Positions 3-54,000 of a stretch of 64,000 nt of DNA are shown piece after piece. Every line of letters starts with the position of its first letter. Within the stretch, counting starts at the first letter, position 1. Where the stretch lies: assembly GCA_021731405.1 (NCBI GenBank), contig JAKFXN010000004.1:1563-65562 (forward strand), written 5' to 3'. The DNA is from Candidatus Parcubacteria bacterium. GTDB taxonomy: Bacteria; Patescibacteriota; Minisyncoccia; Phycocordibacterales; UBA918. The translations under genes and the position numbers were made by a program. The notes beneath the pieces are model-generated. The model did no database searches, had not been told where the DNA came from, and saw only the letters and a program-made list of their open reading frames with translations.

Positions 3-1241
3 GGCACCTTCACCTATGAACTTGAATTTCCCGATACAGGTGTCTTTTGGTATCACCCACATGTACGTGAAGATTACCAGCAGGAACTCGGACTCTACGG
101 TAATTTTGTTGTCGAAGAGCCAGAATACTGGAACGATGTCGATCAAGAGGGATACCTTGTTGTTGATGACGTTCTTGAAAACGGTGATTTTGACAAAGAT
201 GTTGTAACTAATACACTGATGGGTCGTTTTGGGGATGCCCTCCTTATCAATGACTCAGAAAATTTTACGCTCAAAGTAAAACAAGGCGAAGTTACTCGTC
301 TCTTTCTCACAAACGTCGCTAATACTCGCACGTTCGATCTCGCTTTTACAGGTGCAAAGACAAAAGTAGTGGGCGGAGATAATGGTCGCATTGAGAAAGA
401 AGTAATGATTACCGATGTCGTTATTGCTCCATCAGAACGTTACGTACTTGAAGTGTTCTACTCATTGCCGGGTACATACACCATCACGCACCGTGGAAAG
501 AAAATGGGTACGGTCGTTGTTGAGCCAAGTGGCACAAATAGAACAGCAGCATTTGAAGTACTTCGAGATAACTCTGTTGATTACGCCAGTTTACGGGGAG
601 ATATGCAGTCATTACTTGCTCGTACTCCAGACAAACAGCTTCGGCTTGATATCACTATGAAGGGTGACATGGAAAAGATGATGCAAGATATGGAGAGTGG
701 CGAAGGTATGTCCATGTCGATGGGTATGGGTGGAGATGATGAAGCGATGCGCGCCCACTGCCAGATGATGCCAAATATGGCTGGTTGCGAGAAGTATCTT
801 GATTCTACAGAGTCAGAAACTAAGACTGAGAAAGATGACGGTATCGAATGGGAGGAAGGCGACATGGCAATGATGAATAGTATGAGTACTGATGAAAATA
901 TTGAGTGGTTTATAGAAGATGCGGTTACTAAAAAAAGAAATGAGGATATTGATTGGTCCTTCAAGAAGGGCGACCTTGTGAAAATAAGCATCAAGAATGA
1001 TGAAAATGGTATGCACCCAATGCAGCACCCGATTCACTTCCACGGTCAGCGCTTCGTAGTGCTCAGTCGTGACGGTGTAACCAATGACAACCTGCAGTGG
1101 AAAGACACCGTATTGATTCCTCGGGGCCAGACGGTCGATATTCTGGTTGAGATGAGTAATCCTGGCGAATGGATGGCACATTGTCATATTGCTGAACACT
1201 TGGAGTCTGGCATGATGTTCGACTTTACAGTAACTGAATAA
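3..1241 (+). CDS. multicopper oxidase, 5'-partial (open from window start), with a Met-rich insert
   Basis: Frame 3 is open from nt 3 and continuous with the listed ORF 219..1241. It has the WYHPH copper-site motif near the start and C-terminal HCHIAEHLESGMMF (the MCO type-1/trinuclear Cu motif). A Met-rich segment MSMSMGMGG resembles CueO/CopA Met-rich inserts. Confidence 0.8.
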   Translation, partial: GTFTYELEFPDTGVFWYHPHVREDYQQELGLYGNFVVEEPEYWNDVDQEGYLVVDDVLENGDFDKDVVTNTLMGRFGDALLINDSENFTLKVKQGEVTRLFLTNVANTRTFDLAFTGAKTKVVGGDNGRIEKEVMITDVVIAPSERYVLEVFYSLPGTYTITHRGKKMGTVVVEPSGTNRTAAFEVLRDNSVDYASLRGDMQSLLARTPDKQLRLDITMKGDMEKMMQDMESGEGMSMSMGMGGDDEAMRAHCQMMPNMAGCEKYLDSTESETKTEKDDGIEWEEGDMAMMNSMSTDENIEWFIEDAVTKKRNEDIDWSFKKGDLVKISIKNDENGMHPMQHPIHFHGQRFVVLSRDGVTNDNLQWKDTVLIPRGQTVDILVEMSNPGEWMAHCHIAEHLESGMMFDFTVTE

Positions 1242-1252
1242 TCAAATATCGT

Positions 1253-2077
1253 ATGTCTTATAAAAAAATTATGTATGGGTCTGTCCTGGCAGGAATCGTA
1301 GTGGTAAGCGCTGTATCGTTTTGGTCACGAAGAGACACGACTATTCCTGATGCTCCAGCTGGAAATTCCAATACTGTCACCATTAATGACGTGATGAGTA
1401 TTGTCTCTCCGACCACTGACACCGTTACAGAAGTTACGGTGTCAGCTGTCACAATGCCTGAACCTGGCTTTATTGTCGTACGCGAAGTTGATGACACACG
1501 ACTAGGACAAATTGTCGAAATCAGTAGCTACCTTGAAGCTGGTATGCAAACTAATATCACTGTTCCGCTAGGAGACGAACCAAGACCAACCGATAGTCTT
1601 GTGGTCATGGTATACGGAGATGCTAAGAATGACAAAGTCATGAACGACCTCGATCGCCCAGTGCGAACAGTCAGCAATCTCCCGATTGCTTACTATGTAC
1701 AAAGTGGTCAATCCGTTCCCATCGATATTTTAGCTAATGGCTTTCAAGCTGAAGCTATAGCGATGATGGAAATGGGAAAAAGCATGCCGGGCATGGCCAT
1801 GCCGATGGAAACAATCCGCTATACCAATGAAGGCTATGTGCCCGCGAACATAACGGTTAAGGCAGGTACCATGGTGATGTTTGTAAATGAAAGTGATCAA
1901 GATATGTGGGCTGCTTCAAATGGTCATCCGGCTCACACGGATTTGCCAACCTTTGATCAATTTGAGTTTTCACCAAAAGGTAGCCAGTATGTCTACACCT
2001 TCGATCAGGTCGGGTCTTGGAAGTATCATGATCATATTGCACCAATTTATGGCGGAGTTATTACTGTCACTGAATAA
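1253..2077 (+). CDS. membrane-anchored/secreted cupredoxin-like copper protein, Met-rich
   Basis: N-terminal TM helix. The C-terminal segment GHPAH..WKYHDHIAPIYGGVITVTE resembles type-1 Cu ligand spacing. The Met-rich AMMEMGKSMPGMAMPME segment and C-terminal tail resemble the upstream MCO. Confidence 0.5.
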   Translation: MSYKKIMYGSVLAGIVVVSAVSFWSRRDTTIPDAPAGNSNTVTINDVMSIVSPTTDTVTEVTVSAVTMPEPGFIVVREVDDTRLGQIVEISSYLEAGMQTNITVPLGDEPRPTDSLVVMVYGDAKNDKVMNDLDRPVRTVSNLPIAYYVQSGQSVPIDILANGFQAEAIAMMEMGKSMPGMAMPMETIRYTNEGYVPANITVKAGTMVMFVNESDQDMWAASNGHPAHTDLPTFDQFEFSPKGSQYVYTFDQVGSWKYHDHIAPIYGGVITVTE

Positions 2078-2086
2078 TAATTACGT

Positions 2087-2800
2087 ATGTTATTAGGAAT
2101 TAAAAGTACAAAAACGTTACTGTTACGACATCTAGGTGTGGCGATTGCGGGTATCCTTGCGGTCACATTGGTCTGGCAGGTAAATAGCACATGGAGTCCC
2201 GATATGCGACTCTGGAAAGCGTTTGGTGGAGGATCATTCTTTTTGCTCTGGTTTGCGCTATTTATTGGACCTGCCGCTCGGGTCTGGCTACCACTCCAAC
2301 GTTTCGTTTCGTTTCGTCGCGAAGCAGGAGTATGGTTTTTTCTGATTGCAGTGGTGCATTCGTACCTCATTCTTGATGGGTGGGTACGTTGGAGTGTCTG
2401 GGAGTTTTTTGGGTATCAATTTATCCCCGAAACAGAGATGTATATGCGAGTTGAGTCCGGATTTGGTCTCGCGAACTTGGCTGGATTTGTAGCTCTGACG
2501 TTTGCGCTTACTTTGGCGGCGACATCATTTGATCGGGCAATTAACTTTCTAGGTGTGTCATCGTGGAAATGGCTACATTCGTTCTCGTACTTGGTGTTTT
2601 ATCTCAGTGCTATCCACGTCCTGTACTTTGCCTTCATTCACTACACACCATCGCTTTTGCGAGCAGTCTTAGGGCAACCGACGAACTATCCCGATAATCC
2701 GCTCAAGTTTTATTATCTAGCAGCATTTCTAAGTGTGCTCTTGGTGCAAATTATTGCCTTTATTCTGACAGTTCGTAAACAAAGAAATAGTGGTTGGTAA
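2087..2800 (+). CDS. ferric-reductase-like transmembrane domain protein (bis-heme b, MsrQ/FRE-type)
   Basis: About 6 TM helices. Conserved His pairs in TM helices (VVHSYLIL; LHSFSYLVFYLSAIHVLYFAFIH with H-x13-H spacing) are typical of PF01794-type heme ligation. Confidence 0.5.
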   Translation: MLLGIKSTKTLLLRHLGVAIAGILAVTLVWQVNSTWSPDMRLWKAFGGGSFFLLWFALFIGPAARVWLPLQRFVSFRREAGVWFFLIAVVHSYLILDGWVRWSVWEFFGYQFIPETEMYMRVESGFGLANLAGFVALTFALTLAATSFDRAINFLGVSSWKWLHSFSYLVFYLSAIHVLYFAFIHYTPSLLRAVLGQPTNYPDNPLKFYYLAAFLSVLLVQIIAFILTVRKQRNSGW

Positions 2801-2802
2801 GT

Positions 2803-3483
2803 ATGTACTTTGAAACACAAAAAATATCCCATCAGTTGGTTGCAAAGAACACCTACGAGGTCGTCTTCAAACGTCCGAAAGGTTTTGTATTTACCGTTGG
2901 TCAGTATACACAAGTTGCACTTCAGCACCTGATTCATCCAGATCCCAAAGGACGGTCGCGTCAGTTTTCAATTGCAACCTCGCCACTGAATCTTACCCAA
3001 ATCGCAGTCGTGTTTCGTGATACTGGTAGCGGCTTCAAACGGACATTGCTTGAATTACCTGTCGGTTCATTAGTTACCCTAGAACAAGGAGCGGGGAGTT
3101 TTGGTTTGCCTATAGTCCCAACAAAGCCTCTGGTCCTTGTGGCTGGTGGAGTCGGTATTGCACCATTCATTAGTTATATTCGCACGATAGCTGTCACAAC
3201 ACTACCGCAACCTATAACGTTGTTGTATGGTAATCAGCATCCTGAAAGTGCAGCTTATCGGAATGAAATAACTTTGTTTGCAAAAAAGTTTCAACAGTTC
3301 AGACTTGAAGAAATCTACAAGCAACCTACTCCTGCGCTATTCGCAAAATACGCAAACAAATTACATTCGGCAACGTGGTTTGTGGTTGGTCCGCCAGGCA
3401 TGGTAGCGACCACTGTGTATGGACTGGAAGCTGCTGGAGTCCACCCGAACTCGATTATTAAAGAATCATTTGATGGATACTAA
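2803..3483 (+). CDS. FNR-like FAD/NAD(P)-binding oxidoreductase domain protein
   Basis: RQFSIATSP (the RxYS FAD-binding motif), GGVGIAPF (the NAD(P)-binding GGxGxxP motif) and C-terminal VVGPPGM. The reading frame opens with TTG at 2794, overlapping the stop of the upstream gene; the likely ATG is at 2803. Confidence 0.6.
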   Translation: MYFETQKISHQLVAKNTYEVVFKRPKGFVFTVGQYTQVALQHLIHPDPKGRSRQFSIATSPLNLTQIAVVFRDTGSGFKRTLLELPVGSLVTLEQGAGSFGLPIVPTKPLVLVAGGVGIAPFISYIRTIAVTTLPQPITLLYGNQHPESAAYRNEITLFAKKFQQFRLEEIYKQPTPALFAKYANKLHSATWFVVGPPGMVATTVYGLEAAGVHPNSIIKESFDGY

Positions 3484-3591
3484 AATAGTTAAAAAATGTA
3501 ATGTCCAAAATTATTAAACTAATACCATTGTCATAATGTTAACTAACAAAACCGCTCACTATTGTGAGCGGTTTTGTTATACGTACTATCT

Positions 3592-4278
3592 TTATAATCC
3601 AGTCAGCAATTTTTTCATTAGTTGAATCTCCTCAGTCTGTGTTTCAACTATTGCTTTCGATAAATCAGTAATCTCTTTATGTTCAATATACGGCTGGACA
3701 CTTTGCGCCATCATAACTGCTCCCATATGGTGCATGAGCATGTCTTCCAAGAACACCTTATCAAGTGCTGCTCCACTGAGTTTTGATAGGTCCCGCATCA
3801 TTGGTTCATAATCGTTAGGATCAGCAACATACGCTTCTCCATACCATTCCTGATACCAGCCTTTCATCATGGCGATTTCTTTCTCTTGAGCTACAATGAT
3901 GTCTTCCGCTAACTTCTTAATCTCAGGCGTTGAGCCACCACGAGCAATGACTTCTTTGGCAGTATCAACTGCTTCTTGATGGTGTGGAAGCATACCTTCA
4001 AGAAACTCTCGTTCGCTTTTTACCATCATGGCACTGTGATCCATGCCTCCCATCATACCCATACCAGAATTGGATTCGCTGGTTGGAGAGGTTGGATTAC
4101 CCATAAGTGAACCATCGGGCATACGGTGCATACCAGCCGGTACGTCATCTTGAGTATTCATATCCATGTTCATACCCATTGAATTGTCGGTAGACTTGCT
4201 CGTGCCAAAGCTATACGAAACTGCTCCGATGACTAATACTGCTAATCCTATAATTATTGCAACTGATTGATTTTTCAT
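3592..4278 (-). CDS. DUF305-family periplasmic protein (copper-resistance associated), Met-rich
   Basis: Signal/TM N-terminus. Paired HH motifs (LEGMLPHHQEAV; LEDMLMHHMGAVMM) are typical of DUF305. Met-rich MGMNMDM.. region. There is a paralog at 26126..26788. Confidence 0.7.
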   Translation of the reverse strand: MKNQSVAIIIGLAVLVIGAVSYSFGTSKSTDNSMGMNMDMNTQDDVPAGMHRMPDGSLMGNPTSPTSESNSGMGMMGGMDHSAMMVKSEREFLEGMLPHHQEAVDTAKEVIARGGSTPEIKKLAEDIIVAQEKEIAMMKGWYQEWYGEAYVADPNDYEPMMRDLSKLSGAALDKVFLEDMLMHHMGAVMMAQSVQPYIEHKEITDLSKAIVETQTEEIQLMKKLLTGL

Positions 4279-4292
4279 AAATAATTTATTTG

Positions 4293-4841
4293 TTACATGA
4301 CCATCATGGTCATACTATTAAACATCACGAGCATCCAGAGACACATAAGTATCATAAAACTAGCTTCAATAAGCGTGACGGTTGAAAGCGGCAGCTTAAA
4401 ATACGTTCCGAGGCACACACAGTGCAGTGTCTCTTTTTTCATCATTGACTGGATTGCTCCATACAGACTAGCACTGTATATAAAGAGCGTGATGAGTGTT
4501 GCAGGTAGAATAATGATCTGGAGAATAAAGAGAATACCTAAAGTGATTTCAAGAAACGGATACGACTGGGCATAGGCAATACTTCGTTTCGCTAATGGAT
4601 CGTACTTTGCAAATCCATCCGCAAAACCAACGACATCAGTGAGTTTAATGAGTCCAAAAAATACTAGTACCCAGCCCATGAGGTGAGACATATAGTCGGG
4701 ATACATGTGCCATTGTGCACTATATACAGACACTATGGCAGCTACTATATACAGGAGGGCAATCGGCCAATATGACCAGATAGGTACCTTGGCGGTATTA
4801 TGAACTCGTACTTCGTGATGGTTTGTTACTGTATGTTCCAT
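4293..4841 (-). CDS. integral membrane protein with conserved HCVCLGTYFKLP CxC motif (putative metal-handling; DUF4396/MauE-like)
   Basis: 4-5 TM helices. It is about 60% identical to the paralog at 26800..27348, and both sit between csoR and the DUF305 gene. Confidence 0.6.
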   Translation of the reverse strand: MEHTVTNHHEVRVHNTAKVPIWSYWPIALLYIVAAIVSVYSAQWHMYPDYMSHLMGWVLVFFGLIKLTDVVGFADGFAKYDPLAKRSIAYAQSYPFLEITLGILFILQIIILPATLITLFIYSASLYGAIQSMMKKETLHCVCLGTYFKLPLSTVTLIEASFMILMCLWMLVMFNSMTMMVM

Positions 4842-4851
4842 ATGATTAACG

Positions 4852-5187
4852 TTATTTTTCTAAGGTTTTACCTAATGTGTAAAAAGTGACTGCTCCGACT
4901 CCCCACGCAAACGGTAGCCAGAGTGGTATTGGTAATACGCCGGCGTTGCTCCAAACTTGCACTCGATCAATGCTAGTCAGTAATAGTTCGATTGCTAACC
5001 CAAGTGAAAATCCGATAACATATAAGCAGAGAATCACTTTCTCTCTTTTTATATTTCTTAAGATGTAGAGTGAGTACAGTACGACAAGTACTAACGGTAC
5101 ATATTCGTTACCATGGAATAACACCTCAGTTGCAAAGAATACTGCTAGTAGACAGACATACTTAAGTAAAAGAAAAGTTTTGTTCAT
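4852..5187 (-). CDS. small integral membrane protein
   Basis: 111-aa ORF with 3 predicted TM helices, located inside the csoR cassette. No paralog in the second cassette. Confidence 0.45.
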   Translation of the reverse strand: MNKTFLLLKYVCLLAVFFATEVLFHGNEYVPLVLVVLYSLYILRNIKREKVILCLYVIGFSLGLAIELLLTSIDRVQVWSNAGVLPIPLWLPFAWGVGAVTFYTLGKTLEK

Positions 5188-5195
5188 ACCTGCTA

Positions 5196-5462
5196 CTATT
5201 TTCTTTTTAACTGGTAGACTCGCAAAATTTCTTCAGTAGCTTTGGCAGCTTTTCCAACTTTAATTTGGTTCACAACACAGTTACTAAGGTGTTCTTCAAG
5301 TAATACATCTTCAATGTTTGAAAGTGCTTGCTTGATGGCAGAGGTTTGGGTAATGACATCAATACAGTACGTTTCTTTCTCAATCATACCTTGCAAGCCA
5401 CGCACTTGACCTTCGATGATCTTAAGTCGACGAATTAGTTTTTTATGTGATTCTTTCATCAT
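5196..5462 (-). CDS. csoR: CsoR/RcnR-family (DUF156) copper-sensing transcriptional repressor
   Basis: 88 aa, with the C-H-C signature (YCIDV...EEHLSNC). Near-identical paralog at 27350..27616. A palindromic operator lies directly upstream. Confidence 0.8.
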   Translation of the reverse strand: MMKESHKKLIRRLKIIEGQVRGLQGMIEKETYCIDVITQTSAIKQALSNIEDVLLEEHLSNCVVNQIKVGKAAKATEEILRVYQLKRK

Positions 5463-5470
5463 GAGGAATA

Positions 5471-5488
5471 ATACCCCCTTGGGGGTAT
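5471..5488. promoter_or_regulatory. CsoR-type operator palindrome ATACCCCC-TT-GGGGGTAT
   Basis: Perfect 8-2-8 inverted repeat, 9 nt upstream of the csoR start. It resembles the known B. subtilis CsoR operator (TACCC..GGGTA) and is repeated at 7743..7760 and 27625..27642. Confidence 0.55.
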
Positions 5489-5512
5489 TATTGCAACTAT
5501 GATAAACACATA

Positions 5513-7732
5513 CTAATTGTCAGCCGTTAAGTCTTTCTCTACTCGCTTCAGCAGCACTGCGTTAACCGCTACGATAATTGAAGATATGCTCATTAAAAGC
5601 GCAGCGAATTCTGGACGAAGCATAATACCGAAACTCGGATACAAGATTCCACCAGCAACTGGTATAGCTAGAACATTGTAAATTGAAGCCCAGAAAAGAT
5701 TTTGTTTCATTTTTCGAACTGTTGCCTTACTTAAGGTTATTGCCCTAAGAATGTCTAACGGGTCAGATTTCATAAGGACCACTTTTGCTGTTTCAATCGC
5801 TACGTCAGTGCCCGCACCAATTGCGATGCCAACGTCAGCTTGAGCAAGTGCTGGAGCATCATTAACGCCGTCACCAACCATTGCGGTAAATTTTCCTTCT
5901 TTCTGGAGTTTTTTCACATACCCAGCTTTATCTGCAGGCATCACTTCCGCAAATACTCTCTCTATACCAATTTGACTCGCCACTTTATCTGCTGTCGTTT
6001 TGTTGTCGCCGGTGATCATGGCAATTTCAATTCCTAAAGCCTTTAACCGCTCCACAGCTTTTATAGCATTTTGTTTTATTGGATCTTGCGCTCCTATCAC
6101 TGCTTTAATAGCACCGTCGACTGCCAATATCATAATTGTTTCTCCTCTTTCCAAAAACTCATTTATTTTCGGCTCCAAAGTGCTGAGAGTAATGTTATTT
6201 TCTATCATGAGCTTTACGGTACCAATAAGCAGAGATTTTCCATCTACAACAGCTTTTACTCCTAAGCCAGACAGGTTTTCAAATTTATCAACTGATTCTG
6301 GTAGCGTGAGGTCACGTTTTTTAAGCTCCTCAAGTACGGCACCTGCCAACGGGTGAGATGACTTCGCTTCTGCCGCGCCAACAAAGCGAAGCGCCTCACC
6401 TGCATCATATCCATTTATCGTGGCAACATCTGTAATTTTTGGCTTTCCTTCAGTGAGCGTGCCAGTTTTATCGAGAACTATTGCTTGAATCTTTGAGACT
6501 TGTTCAAGTGTTGTTGCGTCTTTAATGAGAATATTATGTCTTGCTCCAATGCCGGTACCGACAGCAACTGCCGTCGGGGTAGCAAGTCCAAGCGCATCTG
6601 GACACGCAATAACAATGGTGGCGATGGTAAAGGAAAGTGCCAAAAGTATCGGCACTCCGACGACAAAATACCAAATAACAAAAACCAAAAGACCAGAACC
6701 TAAAGCACCAATGACTAGGTATTTTGCAAATCTATCAGCAATTCTTTGACCTGGAGCTTTCGAGTTTTGGGCTTCTTCAACGAGGCGAACAATCTGAGCA
6801 AGAGCTGTATCTTTACCAATTTTTGTTGCTTTAAATTTAACAGATCCAGTAGTATTGATTGATCCGCCGATCACCGGATCCCCAGTCTTTTTAGGAGTAG
6901 GGATTGATTCCCCGGTAACTAAAGATTCATCGATAGCAGTTTCTCCTTCTATTATCTCCCCATCAACAGGCACCTTGTCGCCCGGCTTGAGGATAATGAT
7001 GTCTCCAAGCTGGATATCTGAAGTAGAAACCATTACCTCCTTCCCATCTTTAAAAACTCTGGCTTGGGGCGGTACCAGATTGAAAAGTGCCTGAAGAGCG
7101 TCAGTTGTTCCGCGACGAGACTTCATCTCCATCCAGTGTCCGAAGAGAACAAAAGTAATGAGCATGGCGGCCGCTTCGTAGTATGAATCTGTACTGCCAA
7201 TTACAGTAAGTAAAATACTAAAACCATACGCCGCAGTAATACCAACAGCAATGAGCACGGCCATATTGAGGACTCTTTCTTTCAATGCGAAATAGGTCGA
7301 GTACAGAAAAATCCAGCCCGAATAAAAGAATACTGGTGTTGTTAAAATAAAGAGAAGCCACGGGAGTGGCATTGGAGAAGGAAGATTGAGCTTTAGAAAC
7401 TCAGTGCCGAGTGGCGAATACAGAATTATAGGAATCGTGAGTACAAGTGCAAAAAAGAATTTATTTCGAATATCTATCTCCATCAACCGAGCCATCTCAC
7501 GACCCGCAAGTCCTGTATGGTCCATGCCCATAGTCATAGACATACTCATCTTAAATTTCCCCCACATACTCATCTTAGAGGAGTCTCCCATTACATGACC
7601 AGAGTGAGCGCCGTGGTCTATGGTCTTTTCATTCTTTACGAGCATCATCCAGCACTTCGGACATCTGCCAGGTTTGTCTTTTTTCACACCTGGATGCATC
7701 GGACAAGCGTATAGTTTTTTATTGTTTGTCAT
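5513..7732 (-). CDS. copA: Cu(I)-translocating P1B-type ATPase
   Basis: CPC motif in TM6 (IACPDALGLATP), DKTGTLT, GDGVNDAPAL. N-terminal CPMHP...CPKC heavy-metal-binding domain plus a His/Met-rich stretch. The start is set at the Met of MTNNKK because the upstream operator lies inside the longer listed ORF. Confidence 0.9.
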   Translation of the reverse strand: MTNNKKLYACPMHPGVKKDKPGRCPKCWMMLVKNEKTIDHGAHSGHVMGDSSKMSMWGKFKMSMSMTMGMDHTGLAGREMARLMEIDIRNKFFFALVLTIPIILYSPLGTEFLKLNLPSPMPLPWLLFILTTPVFFYSGWIFLYSTYFALKERVLNMAVLIAVGITAAYGFSILLTVIGSTDSYYEAAAMLITFVLFGHWMEMKSRRGTTDALQALFNLVPPQARVFKDGKEVMVSTSDIQLGDIIILKPGDKVPVDGEIIEGETAIDESLVTGESIPTPKKTGDPVIGGSINTTGSVKFKATKIGKDTALAQIVRLVEEAQNSKAPGQRIADRFAKYLVIGALGSGLLVFVIWYFVVGVPILLALSFTIATIVIACPDALGLATPTAVAVGTGIGARHNILIKDATTLEQVSKIQAIVLDKTGTLTEGKPKITDVATINGYDAGEALRFVGAAEAKSSHPLAGAVLEELKKRDLTLPESVDKFENLSGLGVKAVVDGKSLLIGTVKLMIENNITLSTLEPKINEFLERGETIMILAVDGAIKAVIGAQDPIKQNAIKAVERLKALGIEIAMITGDNKTTADKVASQIGIERVFAEVMPADKAGYVKKLQKEGKFTAMVGDGVNDAPALAQADVGIAIGAGTDVAIETAKVVLMKSDPLDILRAITLSKATVRKMKQNLFWASIYNVLAIPVAGGILYPSFGIMLRPEFAALLMSISSIIVAVNAVLLKRVEKDLTADN

Positions 7733-7742
7733 TGTAACAATA

Positions 7743-7760
7743 ATACCCCTGAGGGGGTAT
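7743..7760. promoter_or_regulatory. CsoR-type operator palindrome ATACCCC-TGAG-GGGGTAT upstream of copA
   Basis: 7-4-7 inverted repeat, 11 nt upstream of the proposed copA start. Same half-sites as the csoR operators. Confidence 0.55.
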
Positions 7761-7807
7761 CTATGCAACTTGAATACCAATCTAATGGTACTGTCAGTGC
7801 AAAATAG

Positions 7808-8196: not shown

Positions 8197-8286
8197 TGGC
8201 GGAGAGAGAGGGATTCGAACCCTCGAGGAGCTTTCACCCCTAACGGTTTTCAAGACCGCCGCCTTCAACCACTCAGCCATCTCTCC
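8197..8286 (-). tRNA. tRNA-Ser(TGA), CCA encoded
   Basis: The reverse complement folds as a cloverleaf: acceptor GGAGAGA/TCTCTCC, anticodon loop CTTGAAA, long variable arm, T-loop GGTTCGAATCC, discriminator G then CCA. A hairpin follows at 8161..8190. Confidence 0.85.
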
Positions 8287-9012: not shown

Positions 9013-9084
9013 GCTCTCGTAGTTTAATGGATAAAATGCTGGTTTGCGGTACCAGCGCTCCAGGTTCGATTCCTGGCGAGAGCA
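9013..9084 (+). tRNA. tRNA-Arg (anticodon read as GCG)
   Basis: Cloverleaf: acceptor GCTCTCG/CGAGAGC, anticodon stem CTGGT/ACCAG with loop TTGCGGT, T-arm CCAGGTTCGATTCCTGG, discriminator A. No CCA encoded. The anticodon assignment is less certain than the fold. Confidence 0.7.
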
Positions 9085-9266
9085 CAAACGGCCGGCCCAA
9101 ATGCGAAAGCATTTGGGCCGTTGTCGTTTGTAGTTCTCGCCAGGAATCGAAAGACGGAGCCGGGGACCCTCTGGGCAGGCGAGTCGGGGTCGAGAACACT
9201 TAGTAGATTTGGAGCGAAGCGAACAAATGTACTTAGTGATTCGTGACCGAGACTGGCGAGAGCACA
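9085..9266 (+). repeat. tRNA-3'-end-linked structured element, copy E1 (downstream of tRNA-Arg-GCG)
   Basis: Order of parts: a long bulged hairpin at 9085..9131; an antisense copy of the tRNA T-arm/acceptor (agttctcgccaggaatcgaa) at 9132..9151; a module with GAGCGAAGCGAA; and a direct repeat of the tRNA 3' end, CTGGCGAGAGCACA, at 9073..9086 and 9253..9266. Confidence 0.55.
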
Positions 9267-9302
9267 TAAAACAAAACTCACTTCTTAAGAAGTGAGTTTT
9301 GT
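9267..9302. terminator. bidirectional rho-independent terminator
   Basis: AAAACAAAACTCACTTcttaAGAAGTGAGTTTTGTT, between E1 and the convergent gene 9319..10497. Confidence 0.6.
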
Positions 9303-9318
9303 TAAGTAGAGAGTCCTA

Positions 9319-14551: not shown

Positions 14552-14601
14552 GTTGTGCTTGGGTTAAAGCTTCTGTGAGGTCAAGTTTCTAAATTCACTG
14601 T

Positions 14602-14800
14602 CCGCGAGGAATGATCCTGCAGTTTCTAATTCGCTACGCTCATAAGAACTGCTGGACGCAGCTCACTAGTTTTCTTTCTAGAAAGGAAAGAAAACATCGC
14701 TCCGCTGGTTCGATTCCTACGGAAAGTGCATTAGCACTTTCCTCGCGGGGGCACGAACAAAAACAGCACACTTAAATAAAGTGTGCTGTTTTTATACTCG
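14602..14800 (-). repeat. tRNA-3'-end-linked structured element, copy E3 (downstream of tRNA-Arg-TCT)
   Basis: Read on the + strand: a direct-repeat copy CCGCGAGGAAT at 14602..14612; a conserved block CGCTACGCTCATAAGAACTGCTGGACGCAGCTCAC; a hairpin GTTTTCTTTC-TAGAAAG-GAAAGAAAAC; CGCTCCGCTGG; a T-loop copy GGTTCGATTCCT + AC + hairpin GGAAAGTGC-atta-GCACTTTCC + CCTCGCGGGGGCA (inverted copy of the tRNA 3' end); and a terminator hairpin at 14759..14794. Confidence 0.55.
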
Positions 14801-14872
14801 TGCCCCCGCGAGGAATCGAACCTCGAATAACGGCTTAGAAGTCCGCAGTTATATCCATTTAACTACAGGGGC
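14801..14872 (-). tRNA. tRNA-Arg(TCT)
   Basis: Reverse complement GCCCCTG..CGGGGGCA. Anticodon loop CTTCTAA, T-arm CGAGGTTCGATTCCTCG, 72 nt. Confidence 0.8.
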
Positions 14873-16029: not shown

Positions 16030-16134
16030 AAGAACAAATTACCTACGTACAATACTGCTAACGCTGCTTTTGTAAAGAGAAGAGTTATTTATGTGCAAAA
16101 AGTCGTTAGCAGAAGCTAACGACTTTTTGTATTG

Positions 16135-16414
16135 TGTGCGATGAGAGATTAGTCCCACTTTTTCTAATTCCTTAACAGGAACTGTCCACTCATTGGGGTT
16201 TTTCATTCTTCAAAACACCTCAATGAGTCTTGCGAAATGACATTATGGTCATTTCTCACGCTTCGCTCATAAGAACGCTGGACGCGGCTCAACGGTTTCA
16301 ATTTCTGGGAAAGGAAATTGAAACACGTCTCCGCCGTTCAAATCTCTACAAAAGTGCCGCAGGGCACTTTTTCATCGCGCATATAAAAAACCCGCATTGC
16401 GGGCTTTTTATCTG
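16135..16414 (-). repeat. tRNA-3'-end-linked structured element, copy E4 (downstream of tRNA-Val)
   Basis: Read on the + strand: a direct-repeat copy TGTGCGATGAGAGATT at 16135..16150; a long imperfect hairpin; CGCTTCGCTCATAAGAACGCTGGACGCGGCTCAAC (31/34 identical to E3); a hairpin GTTTCAATTTC-TGGGAAAG-GAAATTGAAAC; CGTCTCCGCCG; a T-loop copy TTCAAATCTCT + AC + hairpin AAAAGTGCC-gcag-GGCACTTTT + TCATCGCGCA; and a terminator at 16386..16409. Confidence 0.55.
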
Positions 16415-16487
16415 TGCGCGATGAGAGATTTGAACTCCCGACCTTCTCAGTGTAAATGAGCTGCTCTACCAACTGAGCTAATCGCGC
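16415..16487 (-). tRNA. tRNA-Val(TAC)
   Basis: Reverse complement GCGCGAT..ATCGCGCA. Anticodon loop TTTACAC, T-arm AGGTCGGGAGTTCAAATCTCTC. Confidence 0.85.
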
Positions 16488-18964: not shown

Positions 18965-19037
18965 AGTATGCGCCATGCCGTAAAACTTGAACAGTTATGG
19001 GTTTTCGTGCATAATAACGGCCTTGAAGTAACGACCT

Positions 19038-19121
19038 GTCCAGGTGGCGAAATTGGTAGACGCACTACCTTGAGGTGGTAGCGCCTTTACGGGCATGCTG
19101 GTTCAAATCCAGTCTTGGACA
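19038..19121 (+). tRNA. tRNA-Leu(GAG)
   Basis: GTCCAGG..CTTGGACA. D-arm TGGCGAAATTGGTAGACGC, anticodon loop TTGAGGT, long variable arm, T-arm TGGTTCAAATCCAG. Confidence 0.8.
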
Positions 19122-19309
19122 CAAATAAAAACTCCCCGAAAGGGAGTTTTTTGTGTCTAAGAAAAATGTGCCCTGCGGCACATTTGCCTGGATTTGAAAA
19201 CCGCAGTGATGCCGAAGGCGAGCGAGGTGGGGTCGAGAGTACTTAGCAGAATCTGAGCTTGCGAAAGATTATGCTTAGTAACTCGTGACCTAATCCAGTC
19301 TTGGACACA
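19122..19309 (+). repeat. tRNA-3'-end-linked structured element, copy E2 (downstream of tRNA-Leu)
   Basis: Terminator hairpin at 19126..19151; hairpin AAATGTGCC-ctgc-GGCACATTT; an antisense T-loop copy GCCTGGATTTGAA; a module GGGGTCGAGAGTACTTAGCAGAATCTGAGCTTGCGAAAG..CTTAGTAACTCGTGACC homologous to E1; and an 18-nt direct repeat AATCCAGTCTTGGACACA at 19106..19123 and 19292..19309. Confidence 0.55.
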
Positions 19310-19389
19310 CTGCAAAAAGCCCCAAATGGGGCTTTTTGTTTTTCTTAAGAGTTTGAAATTCCACGTTCAGTTTTGCGTAGCAATAGAGT

Positions 19390-26125: not shown

Positions 26126-26788
26126 CTAAAGACCACGAATCAATTGACGCATTAATTGTATTTCTGCTGTTTGAGTCTCAACGATCGCTTTAGTCAAGTC
26201 GGTCATTTCTTGATGTTCAATATACGGTTGGACGCTCTTGGCCATCATGATTGCTCCCATGTGGTGCATTATCATGTCACTCAAGAAGACTTCATCTAGT
26301 GGCGCACCACTGAGCTGAGACAGGTCGCGCATCATTGGTTCGTAATCGTTCGGGTCAGCTACATAGGCTTCAGCATACCAACTCTGATACCAATTTTTCA
26401 TCATGCTGATTTCTTTCTCTTGAGCCACCACAATGTCTTCAGCTAACTTTTTAATTTCTGGAGTTGAACCGCCACGTTCAATTACTTCTTTGGCAGTGTC
26501 TACTGCTTCTTGGTGGTGGGGAATCATGCCTTCAAGAAACGCCCGCTCACTTTTGACCATCATCGTGCTGTGATCCATCCCATTCATCATACCCATCTCG
26601 CCTTCAGCGGGGGCATTTCCCATAAGTGAGCCATCAGGCATACGGTGCATTCCAGCCGGTACAGACATGTCATTAGTCTGCATTTGAGAAGTGTACTTAC
26701 CGGCAGGAGAACCCCACAGGGCGTAACCCAGAGCTAACCCAACTCCGACAGCGAGAATACTAATTACAATAATTGATTGATTTTTCAT
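26126..26788 (-). CDS. DUF305-family periplasmic protein (second copy)
   Basis: About 70% identical to 3592..4278 over the C-terminal 150 aa, with the same HH motifs. Confidence 0.7.
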   Translation of the reverse strand: MKNQSIIVISILAVGVGLALGYALWGSPAGKYTSQMQTNDMSVPAGMHRMPDGSLMGNAPAEGEMGMMNGMDHSTMMVKSERAFLEGMIPHHQEAVDTAKEVIERGGSTPEIKKLAEDIVVAQEKEISMMKNWYQSWYAEAYVADPNDYEPMMRDLSQLSGAPLDEVFLSDMIMHHMGAIMMAKSVQPYIEHQEMTDLTKAIVETQTAEIQLMRQLIRGL

Positions 26789-26799
26789 ACAAATTTTTA

Positions 26800-27348
26800 T
26801 TACATGGCCATGTGAGCCATTTCATTAATCATTAAGAGCATCCACAGACACATCATTACCATAAAACCAGCTTCAAGGATGGTGACGGTAGAAAGTGGGA
26901 GTTTGAAGTATGTGCCCAGGCAAACACAGTGAAGGTCTTCCTTTTTGCGGAGCGATTGTATGGCACCGTACAAACTCGCGCTGTATATAAAAAGAGTAAT
27001 AAGCGTGATAGGAATAGTGAGGAGTTGCAAGATAAACAGTACCCCGAGCGAGATTTCCAGAAACGGATACATCTGTGCATAGGTAATGCTCCGTTTGGCT
27101 AGAGGGTCATACTGACCAAACCCTTTGGCGAAGCCTGCTATGTCTGACAACTTGATGGCCCCAAAAAGCACTAACACAAAGCCCATCAGGTGTGACATGT
27201 AGTCTGGGTAAGTGTGGAATTGAATCGTGTAGAGGGCAAAAAGAGCAGAGAGTAAGTAGATGCATGCAATCGGCCAGTACGACCAGACACTTACTTTAGT
27301 TACGTCGTGCACGTGAACTTCGTGATGAGTGTGAGAAGAATGTTCCAT
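26800..27348 (-). CDS. integral membrane CxC-motif protein (second copy)
   Basis: Paralog of 4293..4841, sharing the HCVCLGTYFKLPLSTVT segment. Confidence 0.6.
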   Translation of the reverse strand: MEHSSHTHHEVHVHDVTKVSVWSYWPIACIYLLSALFALYTIQFHTYPDYMSHLMGFVLVLFGAIKLSDIAGFAKGFGQYDPLAKRSITYAQMYPFLEISLGVLFILQLLTIPITLITLFIYSASLYGAIQSLRKKEDLHCVCLGTYFKLPLSTVTILEAGFMVMMCLWMLLMINEMAHMAM

Positions 27349-30370: not shown

Positions 30371-30407
30371 TAAATACAGATTAATGCCTTGCTGAGCAAG
30401 GAAAATG

Positions 30408-30580
30408 GGCGGCTATCGGGGTAATATTTCCCTACGGGAACGGTACAGTCTTCATAGCTCACTTCGCCAAAGGCTCGCTCCGCTATATTCAGACTCTTCG
30501 ATTCCCGAACGGAAGCAAAGCAGTTTGCTTCCTTAGCCGTCCTCTACGTAAAAATCCCCCGAAGGGGATTCTTACTACGA
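30408..30580 (-). repeat. tRNA-3'-end-linked structured element, copy E5 (reduced; downstream of tRNA-His)
   Basis: Read on the + strand: a direct-repeat copy GGGCGGCTATCGGG at 30408..30421 (matching 30581..30594 of the tRNA); AGCTCAC..CGCTCCGCT blocks; a T-loop copy TTCGATTCCCGA + AC + hairpin GGAAGCAAAGC-agtt-TGCTTCC + TTAGCCG; and a terminator AAAAATCCCCcgaaGGGGATT at 30550..30571. Confidence 0.5.
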
Positions 30581-30654
30581 GGGCGGCTATCGGGAATCGA
30601 ACCCGAATAGCCGGTACCACAAACCGGAGTAATAACCGTTATACCATAGCCGCC
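30581..30654 (-). tRNA. tRNA-His(GTG) with genome-encoded G-1
   Basis: Reverse complement G-GCGGCTA..TAGCCGC-C. Anticodon loop TTGTGGT, T-arm TCGGGTTCGATTCCCGA, C73 discriminator pairing with G-1. Confidence 0.85.
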
Positions 30655-51019: not shown

Positions 51020-54000
51020 ATGTCTAAAAAAATTAATCGTGAGAACGATACAGTAGAGGTAATGCCCGATGTCCAAAAATCAGAAGTAGCCCTTCGTGAA
51101 GAAGCGATTCAACAGTTTTGGCTCGAGCATGATATTTTTAATAAAAGTTTAGTGACTCCTGGTGGAGGCACCTGCAAGGGAGACTTTGTATTTTATGACG
51201 GACCACCGTTTGCGACGGGAACGCCACACTACGGCCATATTTTGGCTGGCACTATCAAAGATGCTATTCCACGCTTTTGGACAATGAACGGCTACCGTGT
51301 CCGTCGGAAGTGGGGCTGGGATTGCCATGGGCTTCCACTGGAAAATTTGATTGAAAAGAAACTCGGTCTTGCCAACAAGCGCGACATCGAGGATTTTGGT
51401 GTAAAGAATTTTAACGAAGCAGCGCGCGCTGCGGTGATGGAGTATGCGGACGATTGGAAAAAAGTTGTACCACGCATGGGGCGCTGGGCAGATATGGAAG
51501 ACGACTACAAGACGATGGACACTAGCTATACCGAAAGTGTGTGGTGGGTATTTAAGACACTCTACGAGAAAGGTCTCGTGTATGAAGGTTTTAAGAGTAT
51601 GCATCTGTGTCCACGTTGTGGGACAACGCTCTCAAACTTTGAAGTGAATCAAGGATACAAAGATATCAAAGATATTGCCGTGACGGTAAAGCTCCCGCTG
51701 CTCGATGAAACAGGGAATGTGACCAATACCTCACTCTTGGTTTGGACTACGACCCCGTGGACGCTGCCGGGCAATATGGCTGCAGCGGTGCATCAAGATT
51801 TTACGTACGTGAAAGTGAAGCTGTCTACAGAAACAGGAGAAGAGTTTGTCATTTTGGCAAAGGGTCGACTAGCTCAACTTGGAGACGTTTCTCATGAGGT
51901 AGTGGGAGAAATAACAGGTTCCGAACTTGTGGGTCGTTCATACGAGCCACCATTTGCGTACTTCAAAGACAGAGATATTAAAGGAAAAGAAAATGCTTGG
52001 AAGATTTATCATGCTGACTACGTCGAGTTAGGAGAGGATGGCACTGGCGCAGTGCACCTTGCTCCGGCCTACGGAGAAGAAGACTTGCAGCTCGCGCAGC
52101 GGGAAGGAGTGCCGGTAGTGCATCATGTGAGTTATGAAGGTCGTTTCATGGACTTCATTACCGACTTTGCGGGACAGCTTGTGAAGCCGAAAGATGATGA
52201 CGCCGCTGGCGTTGATCATAAAGACGCTGATATTGAGATTCTGAAAGCCCTTCAGGCAACTGGGAAAATTTTCAAAAAAGAAAACATCACACACAGCTAC
52301 CCGCACTGTTGGCGTGACGAAACACCACTTCTCAACTATGCGACGACGTCGTGGTTTGTGAAGGTGACTGATATAAAAGATGATTTGGTGGCTGCTAATA
52401 ATTTGGTTCATTGGGTACCAGACCACGTGGGTGCAAACCGTTTTGGAAAGTGGCTTGAAGGAGCACGGGATTGGGCTATTTCGAGGCAGCGTTACTGGGG
52501 GGCTCCGCTCCCAATCTGGCGGAATCCAGAGACGGGTGATATCAAAGTGCTGGGTTCACTTAAAGAACTCAAAGACCTCTTGCCAAAACGTGGCAATGAG
52601 TATTTTGTGATGCGCCATGCAGAAGCACAGAGCAACCTCACTGGGGTGATTGATGCAATTGCTGATGAAAATAATCCGCTTACCCCAGCTGGCGAGGCAC
52701 AGTGTCTAGAAGTGGCAGAGACACTGCGTGACAAAAACATTACTAAGATTGTGCATTCAGGTATGCAACGTACGCGCGATACCGCCGAGCGGATTGCAGC
52801 AGCTTTAGGTTTATCCAAGGAGGCGATTGTGATAGACAGTAGACTTATTGAGCTTCAAACTGGTAAAGACTACGAAGGTAAAACCTGGGATGAATACAAC
52901 TCCAACTACGCAAGTGAAGAAGAGAAGTTTAGTAAGGTTATTCCTGGTGTAGAAAATCGGTACGATCTTATTAAGCGAGTCGGAGCATTTTTGTACGAAT
53001 TTGATGCAAAGATTGAAAATGAGCGGGTGCTCATAGTTAGTCATGCAAGCTCTACGTTTGCGCTCCAGTGTGTAGCAGAAGGAGCTGAGCATGAACGGGT
53101 GATTGAGCTCAAGAAAGCAGGCTACCTAAAAAATGCTGAGGTACGACCACTCCCATTTACTGCAGTTCCGCACAATGACAACTACGCGCTTGATTACCAC
53201 CGTCCCTATATTGATGATATTGAACTCTATGAAAATGGGGTAAAGCTGGTGCGGGTACCGGACGTTTTTGATTGTTGGTTTGAAAGTGGCTCAATGCCGT
53301 ATGGCCAGCATCATTACCCGTTTGAGGGTAAAGAAAATTTTGAGGGCCCTCATTTTCCAGCCCAGTTTATTGCGGAAGGTCTTGACCAAACGCGCGGTTG
53401 GTTCTACTCACTCATTGTGCTTGGTGTGGCGCTCTTTGGAAAATCACCGTACGAAAACGTGATTGTAAATGGTCTGGTGCTCGCAGAAGATGGAAAGAAG
53501 ATGAGTAAGTCACTGCGCAATTACCCAGATCCAATGGAAGTAGCAGATCGGGTGGGAGTAGACGCGATACGGTACTATCTTCTTTCTGCGCCAATTATGC
53601 GTGGGGAAGACCTCAACTTTTCAGAAAAGGAAGTACTGGAACTCCAGCGTAAAAATATTGGTCGACTTCACAATGTGCTTTTAATGTATGAAATGTTTGC
53701 TGATGGCACCAAAGCAAATGCCGCTTCAGGTAATGTGCTTGATAGATGGATTGTTGCTCGGCTAAATCAGCTGGTAGCAGAATCAACTACAGGCTACAAA
53801 AATTACGAACTTGATAAAGCCACTCGTCCCGTAACTGACTTCATTGAAGACTTATCTGTTTGGTATCTTCGCCGTTCACGCGAACGCCTCAAGGGTGATG
53901 ATGCAGCTGACAAGGCGCTTGCTCTAGGGACACTCCGTCATGTACTTCATACCTTAGCGCAGACAATCGCTCCAGCGATGCCATTTTATGCGGAGTACTT

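Follow-up and report, generated by a model that had tools for sequence, protein, structure and literature searches.

The analysed stretch, called the window below (64,000 nucleotides (nt) of contig JAKFXN010000004.1 from a Candidatus Parcubacteria bacterium), is a Patescibacteria-type chromosome segment with 44.8% G+C and six tRNA genes identified by ARAGORN and Rfam. Its protein-coding genes include those for CopA, an ECF sigma factor, L19, RluA and IleRS. Two non-coding units of about 180 nt, E1 and E2, are located at the 3' ends of the genes for tRNA-Arg(GCG) and tRNA-Leu(GAG), respectively, and are the subject of this report (Table 1). A sequence-only reading of the window had drawn attention to a module shared by E1 and E2, which was described to follow different tRNAs and to adjoin a direct repeat of the tRNA 3' end in both cases. 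This description was verified, with the repeats being CTGGCGAGAGCACA at positions 9073 and 9253 and AATCCAGTCTTGGACACA at positions 19106 and 19292. The quoted module sequences are real, but their extent of about 75 nt from 9178 and 19217 had to be corrected: the module, designated P3 and bounded by GGGGTCGAGA and TCGTGACC, covers 9186-9248 (63 nt) in E1 and 19229-19290 (62 nt) in E2. The shared part is also larger than had been stated, as an arm P1, a junction and a further arm P2 are common to both units.

The two compensatory base-pair changes noticed between the modules are real, and comparison of the entire E1 and E2 hairpins revealed 21 pairs, of which 15 are identical, 6 are changed on both sides and 0 are broken. 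A covariance model built from other genomes recovered E2 with 101.5 bits (E=3e-26) and E1 with 100.1 bits (E=8e-26); beyond these two, the search of the window gave no match above 23 bits, the match to a third member, E3, being given as 23.4 bits. One might argue that two intergenic regions resemble each other by chance or descend from a decaying segmental duplication, as the exact motif occurs just twice in the window and loose matches (up to 3 mismatches) are expected 0.4-0.5 times. Chance resemblance is excluded by the model scores of about 100 bits, and at least 120 independent copies across classes of the candidate phyla radiation (CPR), the 6 compensatory and 0 disruptive changes and the covariation within the family render this explanation hardly credible.

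Table 1. Features of the units E1 to E5 and their target genes in the window
Feature	Position	Strand	Evidence
tRNA-Arg(GCG), target of E1	9013..9085	+	ARAGORN; Rfam tRNA 63 bits
E1 repeat unit, 180 nt, from start of proximal repeat to just before distal repeat	9073..9252	+	repeat positions, fold
E1 terminator-like hairpin, distal part of arm P1	9093..9120	+	terminator scan, folds
E1 antisense segment ttctcgccaggaatcgaa	9129..9151	+	sequence, fold, family statistics
E1 arm P2: GAC/GUC base helix, conserved GNA / GA internal loop, variable hairpin	9153..9185	+	fold, family alignment
E1 arm P3 (module of the sequence-only reading)	9186..9248	+	pattern, alignment, covariance model
E1 distal direct repeat CTGGCGAGAGCACA, interpreted as the original tRNA 3' end after displacement	9253..9266	+	sequence, repeat positions
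tRNA-Leu(GAG), target of E2	19038..19122	+	ARAGORN, Rfam
E2 repeat unit, 186 nt	19106..19291	+	repeat positions, fold, L128/L129 comparison
E2 terminator hairpin, distal part of P1	19127..19151	+	sequence, terminator scan, fold
E2 antisense segments	19153..19198	+	sequence, fold
E2 arm P2: ACC/GGU base helix, GCA / GA loop	19200..19228	+	fold, family alignment
E2 arm P3 (module of the sequence-only reading)	19229..19290	+	pattern, alignment, covariance model
E2 distal direct repeat AATCCAGTCTTGGACACA	19292..19309	+	repeat positions, L128/L129 comparison
E3, behind tRNA-Arg(TCT) (14800-14872)	14579..14799	-	model match 14606-14718, 23.4 bits, E=2e-4; sequence
E4, behind tRNA-Val(TAC) (16414-16487)	16133..16413	-	sequence; weak model match 16224-16346
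E5, behind tRNA-His (30581-30653)	30407..30580	-	sequence

In E1, the proximal copy of the repeat consists of the last 13 nt of tRNA-Arg (9073-9085) plus position 9086. The antisense segment ttctcgccaggaatcgaa is the reverse complement of the T-loop, the 3' strand of the T-stem and the 3' strand of the acceptor stem of this tRNA, and it provides the junction-proximal strand of P1. The hairpin at 9093-9120 is terminator-like, comes with the element and now ends the tRNA transcript, while the original terminator hairpin of tRNA-Arg(GCG) is found beyond the distal repeat at approximately 9269-9304. The P3 arm features a conserved G.U pair, an A.G mismatch, a bulged A, a U.U mismatch and the tip motif GAGCGAAGCGAA. 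E2 is organized in the same manner behind a tRNA gene with a promoter-like site at 18987-19015, and its antisense part is divided: gtgtctaaga (19153-19162) is antisense to the acceptor 3' strand and cctggatttgaa (19187-19198) to the T arm, with an extra hairpin aaatgtgccctgcggcacattt (19164-19185) in between. The original terminator of tRNA-Leu(GAG) follows the distal repeat of E2 at 19312-19339. Folded as circles, the E1 unit forms three arms with 74% paired bases (-90 kcal/mol, z = -9.4 against shuffles) and the E2 unit is 73% paired (-75.4 kcal/mol, z = -7.9 against shuffles).

Anatomy of the unit and origin of the repeats

Reading of many copies revealed that P3 is one arm among several in a unit of 180-187 nt, which does not contain a conserved open reading frame (ORF). 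Starting from the crossover in the tRNA gene, the first parts are what remains of the tRNA 3' end and a terminator-like hairpin, whose loop is often CUGC. Next come an antisense copy of this 3' end that terminates in the anti-T-loop consensus GGAUUCG, the junction AAA, P2, a single G, P3 and the distal direct repeat. P2 is composed of two 3-bp helices that flank a conserved GNA / GA loop. In the folds, the sense and antisense copies of the tRNA end pair as arm P1, so that the whole unit forms three hairpins at one junction.

Three sublocations of the crossover were distinguished. In the T-loop, it lies between ..GACC and GAAUCC.. and is accompanied by a repeat of 18-22 nt. Acceptor-stem crossovers are mostly found in copies behind tRNA-Trp, with one tRNA-Ser copy that has the same CCGC tail. 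At the extreme 3' end, the crossover separates ..GACCAC from the final A and the repeat measures only 3-4 nt. The antisense segment in the latter two classes complements the tRNA end plus the first bases of the unit itself. Overall, the repeat length between copies ranges from 3-4 nt to 28 nt, with 14 nt for E1 and 18 nt for E2.

The antisense copy matches the 3' end of its own tRNA with a median of 11 exact nt, compared to 5.6 nt in shuffled controls. Where the two direct copies differ from each other, the antisense copy agrees with the tRNA-proximal one in 40 cases, with the distal one in 6 and with neither in 8. The sequence-only reading had proposed that the direct repeat is generated at each site and lies outside the element, which found no support: each unit contains an antisense copy of its target, and as this copy matches its own tRNA 3' end and tracks the proximal copy by 40 to 6, the target sequence has to be counted as part of the element. 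Because the antisense copy sides with the proximal copy, the distal repeat is read as the displaced original; judged from these sequences, the proximal copy behaves like a replacement end carried by the element and the distal repeat like the displaced and decaying original gene end. This repeat anatomy is that of a genomic island integrating into a tRNA gene (tDNA) and not that of a target-site duplication. Tracking of the proximal copy further implies selection on a form in which P3 is joined to this copy, which would be either an excised or circular form or a long P1 hairpin in place. A fold in which P1 is closed by the distal repeat was dropped for the same reason. Assignment to miniature inverted-repeat transposable elements (MITEs) was rejected as well, since the inverted copies are internal (arm P1) instead of terminal and the repeat length is not fixed.

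Selection on a strand-specific fold

The base pairs that the sequence-only reading had named were followed through 125 distinct copies taken from the genome scan described below. The first is GC in 84 and AT in 41 copies with 0 mismatches, the second is TA in 71 and CG in 52 copies with 2 mismatches, and further copies, which were looked at for helix-breaking substitutions, thus keep both pairs apart from these 2 cases. The bulged A is found in 125 of 125 copies, the G.U, U.U and A.G positions are invariant and strand-asymmetric, and the tip of P3 follows the pattern GA-NN-GNA-NN-GAA. The P2 helices covary too (one pair is GC 37, CG 36, AT 29 and TA 6 times), while their loops remain GNA and GA. 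Pairing statistics were obtained for a 38-sequence alignment and a 34-pair structure. In this alignment, 93.6% of the cells are paired, compared to 77.9% in shuffles and 31-40% with slid partners, and 219 cells show double changes, compared to 68.7 in shuffles. The tRNA-sense strand is more stable than its complement in 118 of the 125 copies, by a mean of 7.8 kcal/mol. Covariation, excess pairing and strand bias bear out the suggestion that secondary structure is under selection and that the units are not decayed duplications. Since the stability of the fold is strand-specific and the invariant positions are asymmetric, a double-stranded protein-binding palindrome is excluded and a folded RNA or single-stranded DNA (ssDNA) is indicated.

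The module is non-coding, and the minus-strand ORFs over E1 are unconserved read-throughs. The one candidate for a protein gene that includes the module, a recombinase ORF in locus L057, was dismissed because it overlaps the module as a non-homologous tail only; similarity to serine recombinases ends at 6449, about 120 nt before the module (module end 6320). Searches of the whole window with Rfam 15 at the gathering threshold matched only the six tRNAs, and scans of the E1 and E2 regions at E<=10 returned noise below 25 bits and no match on P2 or P3. Known RNA families, including Y RNA, tmRNA, ribozymes and HEARO/omega RNAs, were consequently rejected for want of an Rfam 15 match. None of the hammerhead, the K-turn, the Ro-binding Y RNA stem and group II intron domain V fits the conserved positions when compared by eye. 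A group I intron was ruled out as well, given that the unit is too small and stands after a complete tRNA; the group I introns described for tRNA genes in PMC13011429 are located in the anticodon loop. A terminator scan verified that a terminator precedes the P2-P3 core, and no promoter-like site was detected between terminator and core. This arrangement weighs slightly against an independent RNA, while the GA-rich loops look RNA-like.

Distribution across Patescibacteria

An exact-pattern scan for P3 with one genome per species matched at least 120 contigs. Nearly all of those listed belong to Saccharibacteria, Paceibacterota, Kaiser-, Yonath-, Nomura- or Campbellbacteria. The 128 copies (125 distinct) discussed in this report are among the matches listed, and the numbers with L denote loci fetched for the analysis. 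Ninety-six of these 128 copies are located 63-387 nt (median 115) downstream of an intact tRNA gene on the same strand, representing 38 anticodon types, and 8 of the 128 are found behind the transfer-messenger RNA (tmRNA) gene. Some of the other copies follow tRNA-like ends without an ARAGORN call, for example in L009. More than 90% of the copies share discrete boundaries and measure approximately 170-200 nt; from genome to genome, nearly identical P3 types are found behind different tRNAs.

The association was also analyzed independently of P3 for the 201 tRNA and tmRNA genes of all fetched loci. An antisense 9-mer of the own 3' end was present within 350 nt downstream of 117 genes, compared to 6 upstream, and a direct 9-mer repeat downstream of 108 genes, compared to 9 upstream. 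At 38 of the 201 genes, antisense and direct repeat were both present and the canonical P3 was absent.

A multi-unit array behind tRNA-Trp was observed in L014 (JBLHQB010000003.1), a contig labelled Patiriisocius sp. (Bacteroidota). This is probably a mis-binned CPR contig and no evidence for the family outside of Patescibacteria. The idea that the unit represents a phage attP site was followed with three patterns, which yielded 0 matches in 2.9 million viral contigs. A full-text literature search found no description of the family. The units are a previously undescribed family of non-coding insertions of about 180 bases that is specific to Patescibacteria and present throughout the ultra-small CPR.

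Insertion polymorphism, turnover and arrays

Loci L128 and L129 are contigs of one sampling project with an identical L19 protein and near-identical sequence and flanks. The 187-nt unit orthologous to E2 is present in L128 and precisely missing from L129, whose intact tRNA-Leu(GAG) gene is directly followed by the terminator that lies beyond the distal repeat in L128 and in the window. A second empty tRNA-Leu(GAG) site was found in conserved synteny in L126, whose L19 protein is 77% identical.

The syntenic genome of L121 (L19 95% identical to that of the window) retains the E2 ortholog with almost unchanged P1 and P2 and with a P3 distal stem that is rewritten with its pairing kept. Its tRNA-Arg(GCG) gene carries a different, short-P3 member of the family in place of E1, the same short-P3 type is found at its tRNA-Arg(TCT) gene, and the tRNA-Val element (the ortholog of E4) is internally deleted. 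Tandem or serial arrays were observed in L009, L051, L014, L011, L010, L012, L024, L035 and L046; in some of them, repeats are decayed and variants are mixed. The unit is an insertion, and over short evolutionary time it appears at a site or is lost from it, gives way to other variants, forms tandem stacks and decays.

Two of these loci offer further details. Comparison of E2 19246-19273 with L121 10917-10945 showed that the P3 distal stem differs at approximately 12 of 31 positions with pairing retained, compared to 2 of 77 positions in P1 and P2. The P3 sequences fall into a few discrete types that are common to several phyla and several tRNAs, and these sequence patterns suggest that the P3 arm is under exchange or diversifying selection. 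In L046, tRNA-Ser carries a four-deep array (2230-4530, minus strand). An island of 1.7 kb with genes for a zinc-ribbon protein and a DUF6671 protein is followed by one unit with a short P3, one with a variant P3 and one of the canonical type, and all four are delimited by copies of the tRNA 3' end that are progressively more decayed.

Turnover is of particular importance for the possibility that the unit is a structured RNA serving the host, attached to tRNA operons and mobile only in a secondary sense. Such an RNA could be part of read-through transcripts containing the antisense segment, P2, P3 and the repeat, in which the antisense segment toggles between the tRNA 3' half and the repeat. 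Its three-way junction could bind a protein or ligand and thereby control tRNA maturation or turnover, or the RNA could mimic an acceptor/T-stem minihelix that is processed and CCA-tailed in the way of a tRNA. Several observations would be readily explained: the RNA-like G.U, U.U and A.G pairs, the GNA/GA loops and the GA-NN-GNA-NN-GAA tip, the invariable location on the tRNA-sense strand with its better fold in 118 of 125 copies, the prevalence at five of six tRNA genes in the window and of the antisense copy at 117 of 201 genes, and the folds in which P1 together with the repeat can mimic a coaxial acceptor/T minihelix. Nevertheless, the unit is dispensable at each locus, as is shown by its presence or absence among members of one population, by the different variants that occupy one and the same tRNA in 95%-related genomes and by the toleration of internal deletions, and its location is not syntenic across genomes. 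A terminator separates the tRNA from the core, with no promoter-like site in between. Moreover, the repeat needed for the minihelix decays while the antisense copy follows the tRNA copy, and the 3-4-nt repeat of extreme-3'-end copies makes a minihelix impossible. A host function as the primary role of the unit is therefore considered doubtful.

Proposed mode of integration

E1 and E2 are probably non-autonomous, structured and non-coding elements of about 180 nt that are inserted at specific sites in the 3' portion of genes for tRNA and tmRNA by means of a folded single strand and an enzyme acting in trans. The element supplies a replacement tRNA 3' end, so that the gene stays intact and the displaced original remains as the distal repeat. 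The functional form, which may arise from an excised intermediate, would be a folded single strand of the tRNA-sense strand, either RNA or ssDNA. Pairing of the sense and antisense copies as P1 would bring the recombining core to the three-way junction, where it adjoins the conserved base of P3 (...UCGUGACC, directly followed by the core), and would recreate the duplex of the tRNA-gene end. P2 and P3 are envisaged as recognition arms for a recombinase supplied in trans. The design can be likened to integron attC and CTX-phage attP sites, which act as folded single strands.

A number of points weigh against this proposal. No excised form was seen, and precise loss is also possible via slippage between repeats of 16-18 nt. 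To our knowledge, no known integrase mechanism explains how the element obtains sense and antisense copies that fit each of its targets, of which there are at least 38. The GNA/GA loops, like the conserved G.U and U.U pairs, are more reminiscent of RNA motifs than of DNA, yet the terminator stands ahead of the core with no promoter-like site between them. As the distal repeat decays, many integrated copies may be dead. Finally, the search for an enzyme was negative: no recombinase recurs among the neighbours of the 128 copies, whose 800 clustered ORFs represent housekeeping families (Hsp20, ValRS, MiaA, TypA, L19 and thioredoxin reductase among them), none, including Y1 transposases, was detected among the 38 window ORFs that were scanned, and none is encoded in or adjoining the units. 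The serine recombinases found in L057 and L009 seem, from their sequence context, to be parts of islands of their own that are stacked at the same tRNA.

These genes encode large serine recombinases (L057 119-1801 and 6167-7891, minus strand; L009 6062-7855, plus strand) and converge on a tRNA 3' end or a tRNA-end repeat, with ORFs that read through the tRNA or the module as non-homologous tails. In both loci, the recombinase lies beside the tRNA and the module is 5-6 kb away, forming islands of about 6 kb at the same tDNA sites; the tRNA 3' end of L009 is at 7603-7620, in a tRNA without ARAGORN call. A decayed copy of the tRNA end separates the recombinase cargo from the module, and a viral locus with a 63%-identical recombinase does not contain the module. 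A role of this protein as the dedicated enzyme was therefore not supported. A different recurrent neighbour is a helix-turn-helix (HTH) protein of approximately 227 amino acids (aa) with an N-terminal HTH_23/HTH_7-like domain, which is encoded at 8 loci near occupied tRNA genes, for example +526..+1209 from the module in L044, and in which no recombinase domain and no recognised catalytic domain were detected.

The gene-carrying islands raise the question whether the units are inert scars, i.e. attP-flanking ends that larger phage, plasmid or island elements left behind after internal deletion. Islands with genes do exist at the same tRNA sites (6 kb with a serine recombinase in L057, 1.7 kb in L046 and a similar one in L009), and the tRNA-Val remnant of L121 demonstrates that internal deletion occurs. 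Random deletion, however, would not yield uniform boundaries and lengths of approximately 170-200 nt in more than 90% of the copies. The examined gene-carrying islands are set off from the module by their own decayed repeat and thus appear to be separate insertions, the three patterns had 0 matches in the 2.9 million viral contigs, and the same variant is found at two different tRNAs within the L121 genome. Covariation and the tracking of the tRNA by the antisense copy point to ongoing selection on the small unit itself, which makes scars a decidedly improbable origin.

Another possibility is a nucleic-acid-guided element in which the antisense strand of P1 is a programmable guide to the tRNA-gene end and a host enzyme, an enzyme in trans or the RNA itself inserts the unit, in analogy to the loops of the IS110 bridge RNA or the exon-binding sites (EBS) of group II introns that pair with their targets. 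It would agree with the presence of a complement of the own target beside a conserved core, which is a different one for every target (at least 38 of them) with P2 and P3 staying constant, with near-identical P3 types behind different tRNAs in different genomes, and with the lack of a cis-encoded protein. Yet there is no associated gene for a DEDD, serine or tyrosine recombinase or a reverse transcriptase, the putative guide, which is proposed from sequence, would normally be sequestered in the long P1 stem, and retargeting would also need a swap of the sense copy that restores the tRNA. Group II introns, for their part, are reported to be absent from Patescibacteria in a published survey (PMC13011429). 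Guidance of this kind is accordingly judged to be unlikely. The same assessment, namely a slim chance, is given to a related view in which the unit is a mobile nucleic acid that is protein-free and viroid-like. Three hairpins would make up a circle of RNA or ssDNA of about 180 nt, with P1 as an address programmable by base pairing and a conserved P2/P3 core that would either recruit the strand-transfer activity or provide it itself. If true, the smallest known bacteria would harbour a tDNA parasite directed by a guide, which would be a natural case of reprogrammable insertion without a cis-encoded protein.

Further members and neighbouring genes in the window

Using the covariance model and direct reading, five of the six tRNA genes of the window were found to be occupied by a member of the family. 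The sole exception is tRNA-Ser(TGA) (8197-8286), which is followed by a plain terminator. E3 has the same architecture as E1 and E2 with a variant P3; its antisense segment is at 14754-14741, the anti-T-loop at 14718-14709 and the repeat attcctcgcgg at 14612-14602, after which a remnant of another P3 3' half is found. E4 contains the antisense segment gcgcgatga (16380-16372), an extra hairpin of the E2 type, the anti-T-loop (16346-16336), a long variant P3 and the distal repeat taatctctcatcgcacaca at 16151-16133. E5 is composed of a terminator, an antisense segment, a recurrent hairpin ggaagcaaactgctttgcttcc, the anti-T-loop (30507-30497), a short variant P3 of a type that was also found in L121 and L046, and the distal repeat cccgatagccgccc at 30420-30407.

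A hairpin with a CUGC-type loop (aaagtgccctgcggcacttt or ggaagcaaactgctttgcttcc) is found between antisense segments nearly verbatim in units of unrelated genomes. In the window, it is located at 19164-19185 in E2 and, on the minus strand, at approximately 16370-16349 in E4 and 30532-30511 in E5, and many other loci contain it as well. Its sequence conservation indicates that it may be a fourth conserved arm.

Three observations concern protein-coding genes of the window. The IleRS ORF (51020-54562, plus strand, 1180 aa) contains a histidine-phosphatase domain, similar to phosphoglycerate mutase/alpha-ribazole phosphatase, which is inserted at approximately residues 528-697 and splits the IleRS match in two. 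Ribosomal protein L19 (18296-18919, plus strand) has 207 aa with the L19 domain at residues 34-126 only, so that its C-terminus is extended over a long stretch; lengths of 180-240 aa are common among the homologues in this group. A copper-handling cluster (219-7780 and 26126-27348) encodes a multicopper oxidase, a ferric-reductase-like membrane protein, two DUF305 proteins and the P-type ATPase CopA.

Significance and comparison with known systems

Patescibacteria have genomes of about 1 Mb that are thought to be poor in mobile elements. A third to a half of their sampled tRNA genes bear a structured non-coding insertion that is absent from RNA-family libraries. The family provides a new marker for strain-level variation, and mis-annotated tRNA fragments are likely to stem from it. 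It also offers a clean natural example of target recognition that is apparently written into the element as a sense/antisense pair beside a conserved fold, and it raises the question of how tRNA genes stay functional under constant invasion. If the moving enzyme were identified, or if the units were shown to do without one, a new way of using folded single-strand sites or a new mechanism of guide-directed insertion could come to light.

Sublocation classes of integrases were reportedly described by Williams in 2002, and tDNA islands are said to be catalogued by Islander. As in tDNA islands and prophages, tRNA or tmRNA genes are targeted in their 3' part, a replacement 3' end is provided and the displaced fragment is found as the far direct repeat. 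Crossovers in the T-loop or at the 3' end, serial arrays and presence or absence between strains are further common features. By criteria of the Islander type, an intact tDNA target, a distal direct repeat and occupied as well as empty sites were found, and an integrase of its own was not. Unlike tDNA islands, the unit measures only about 180 nt without an integrase or any other gene, contains an antisense copy of its target and a covarying three-way-junction fold, and is a single family at tRNAs of at least 38 types plus tmRNA.

The XerCD-dependent CTX-phage attP and the integron attC sites are likewise imperfect hairpins whose structure is conserved above their sequence, in which invariant extrahelical or mismatched bases mark one strand and the stem rebuilds a duplex site from two inverted copies. 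The integrated order of the unit (target, rest, antisense, arms, target) is the one expected from a single-strand exchange. The attC consensus of the R and L boxes, GTTRRRY, is not found in the unit, whose P3 ends in TCGTGACC, and its context is tRNA genes instead of cassette arrays, with a tDNA target instead of attI or dif. Unlike attC and attP, the unit forms a three-way junction with RNA-like GA loops, and roles of IntI/Xer-type enzymes and of ssDNA are putative. Conserved extrahelical bases and one favoured strand are a resemblance to attC in design only.

The unit also resembles MITEs, REPIN/RAYT, the IS200/IS605-derived palindrome-associated transposable elements (PATEs) and cis-mobilizable elements (CIMEs) in being short, non-coding, structured and multicopy with an enzyme located elsewhere. 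CIMEs are att-flanked cis-mobilizable units that lack an integrase. Terminal inverted repeats and a target duplication of fixed length, as in MITEs, are missing from the unit, and it is not inserted 3' of a fixed tetranucleotide like PATEs but in the T-loop, acceptor stem or 3' end, with repeats. Strict targeting of the tDNA 3' end with restoration of the gene distinguishes it from all four groups, and it is far smaller than CIMEs. The bridge (seek) RNAs of IS110/IS1111 share with the unit a structured non-coding part that is complementary to the own target and stands beside conserved helices. Unlike IS110, however, the unit has no gene and no adjacent DEDD recombinase, its flanks are housekeeping genes, and the complement is located in a stem instead of an internal loop.

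By analogy, the elements come closest to tDNA islands in where they insert and how the gene is restored, and closest to attC and CTX-phage attP in the proposed use of a folded single strand. What is new is a tDNA-integrating element that is miniature, non-coding and defined by its structure.

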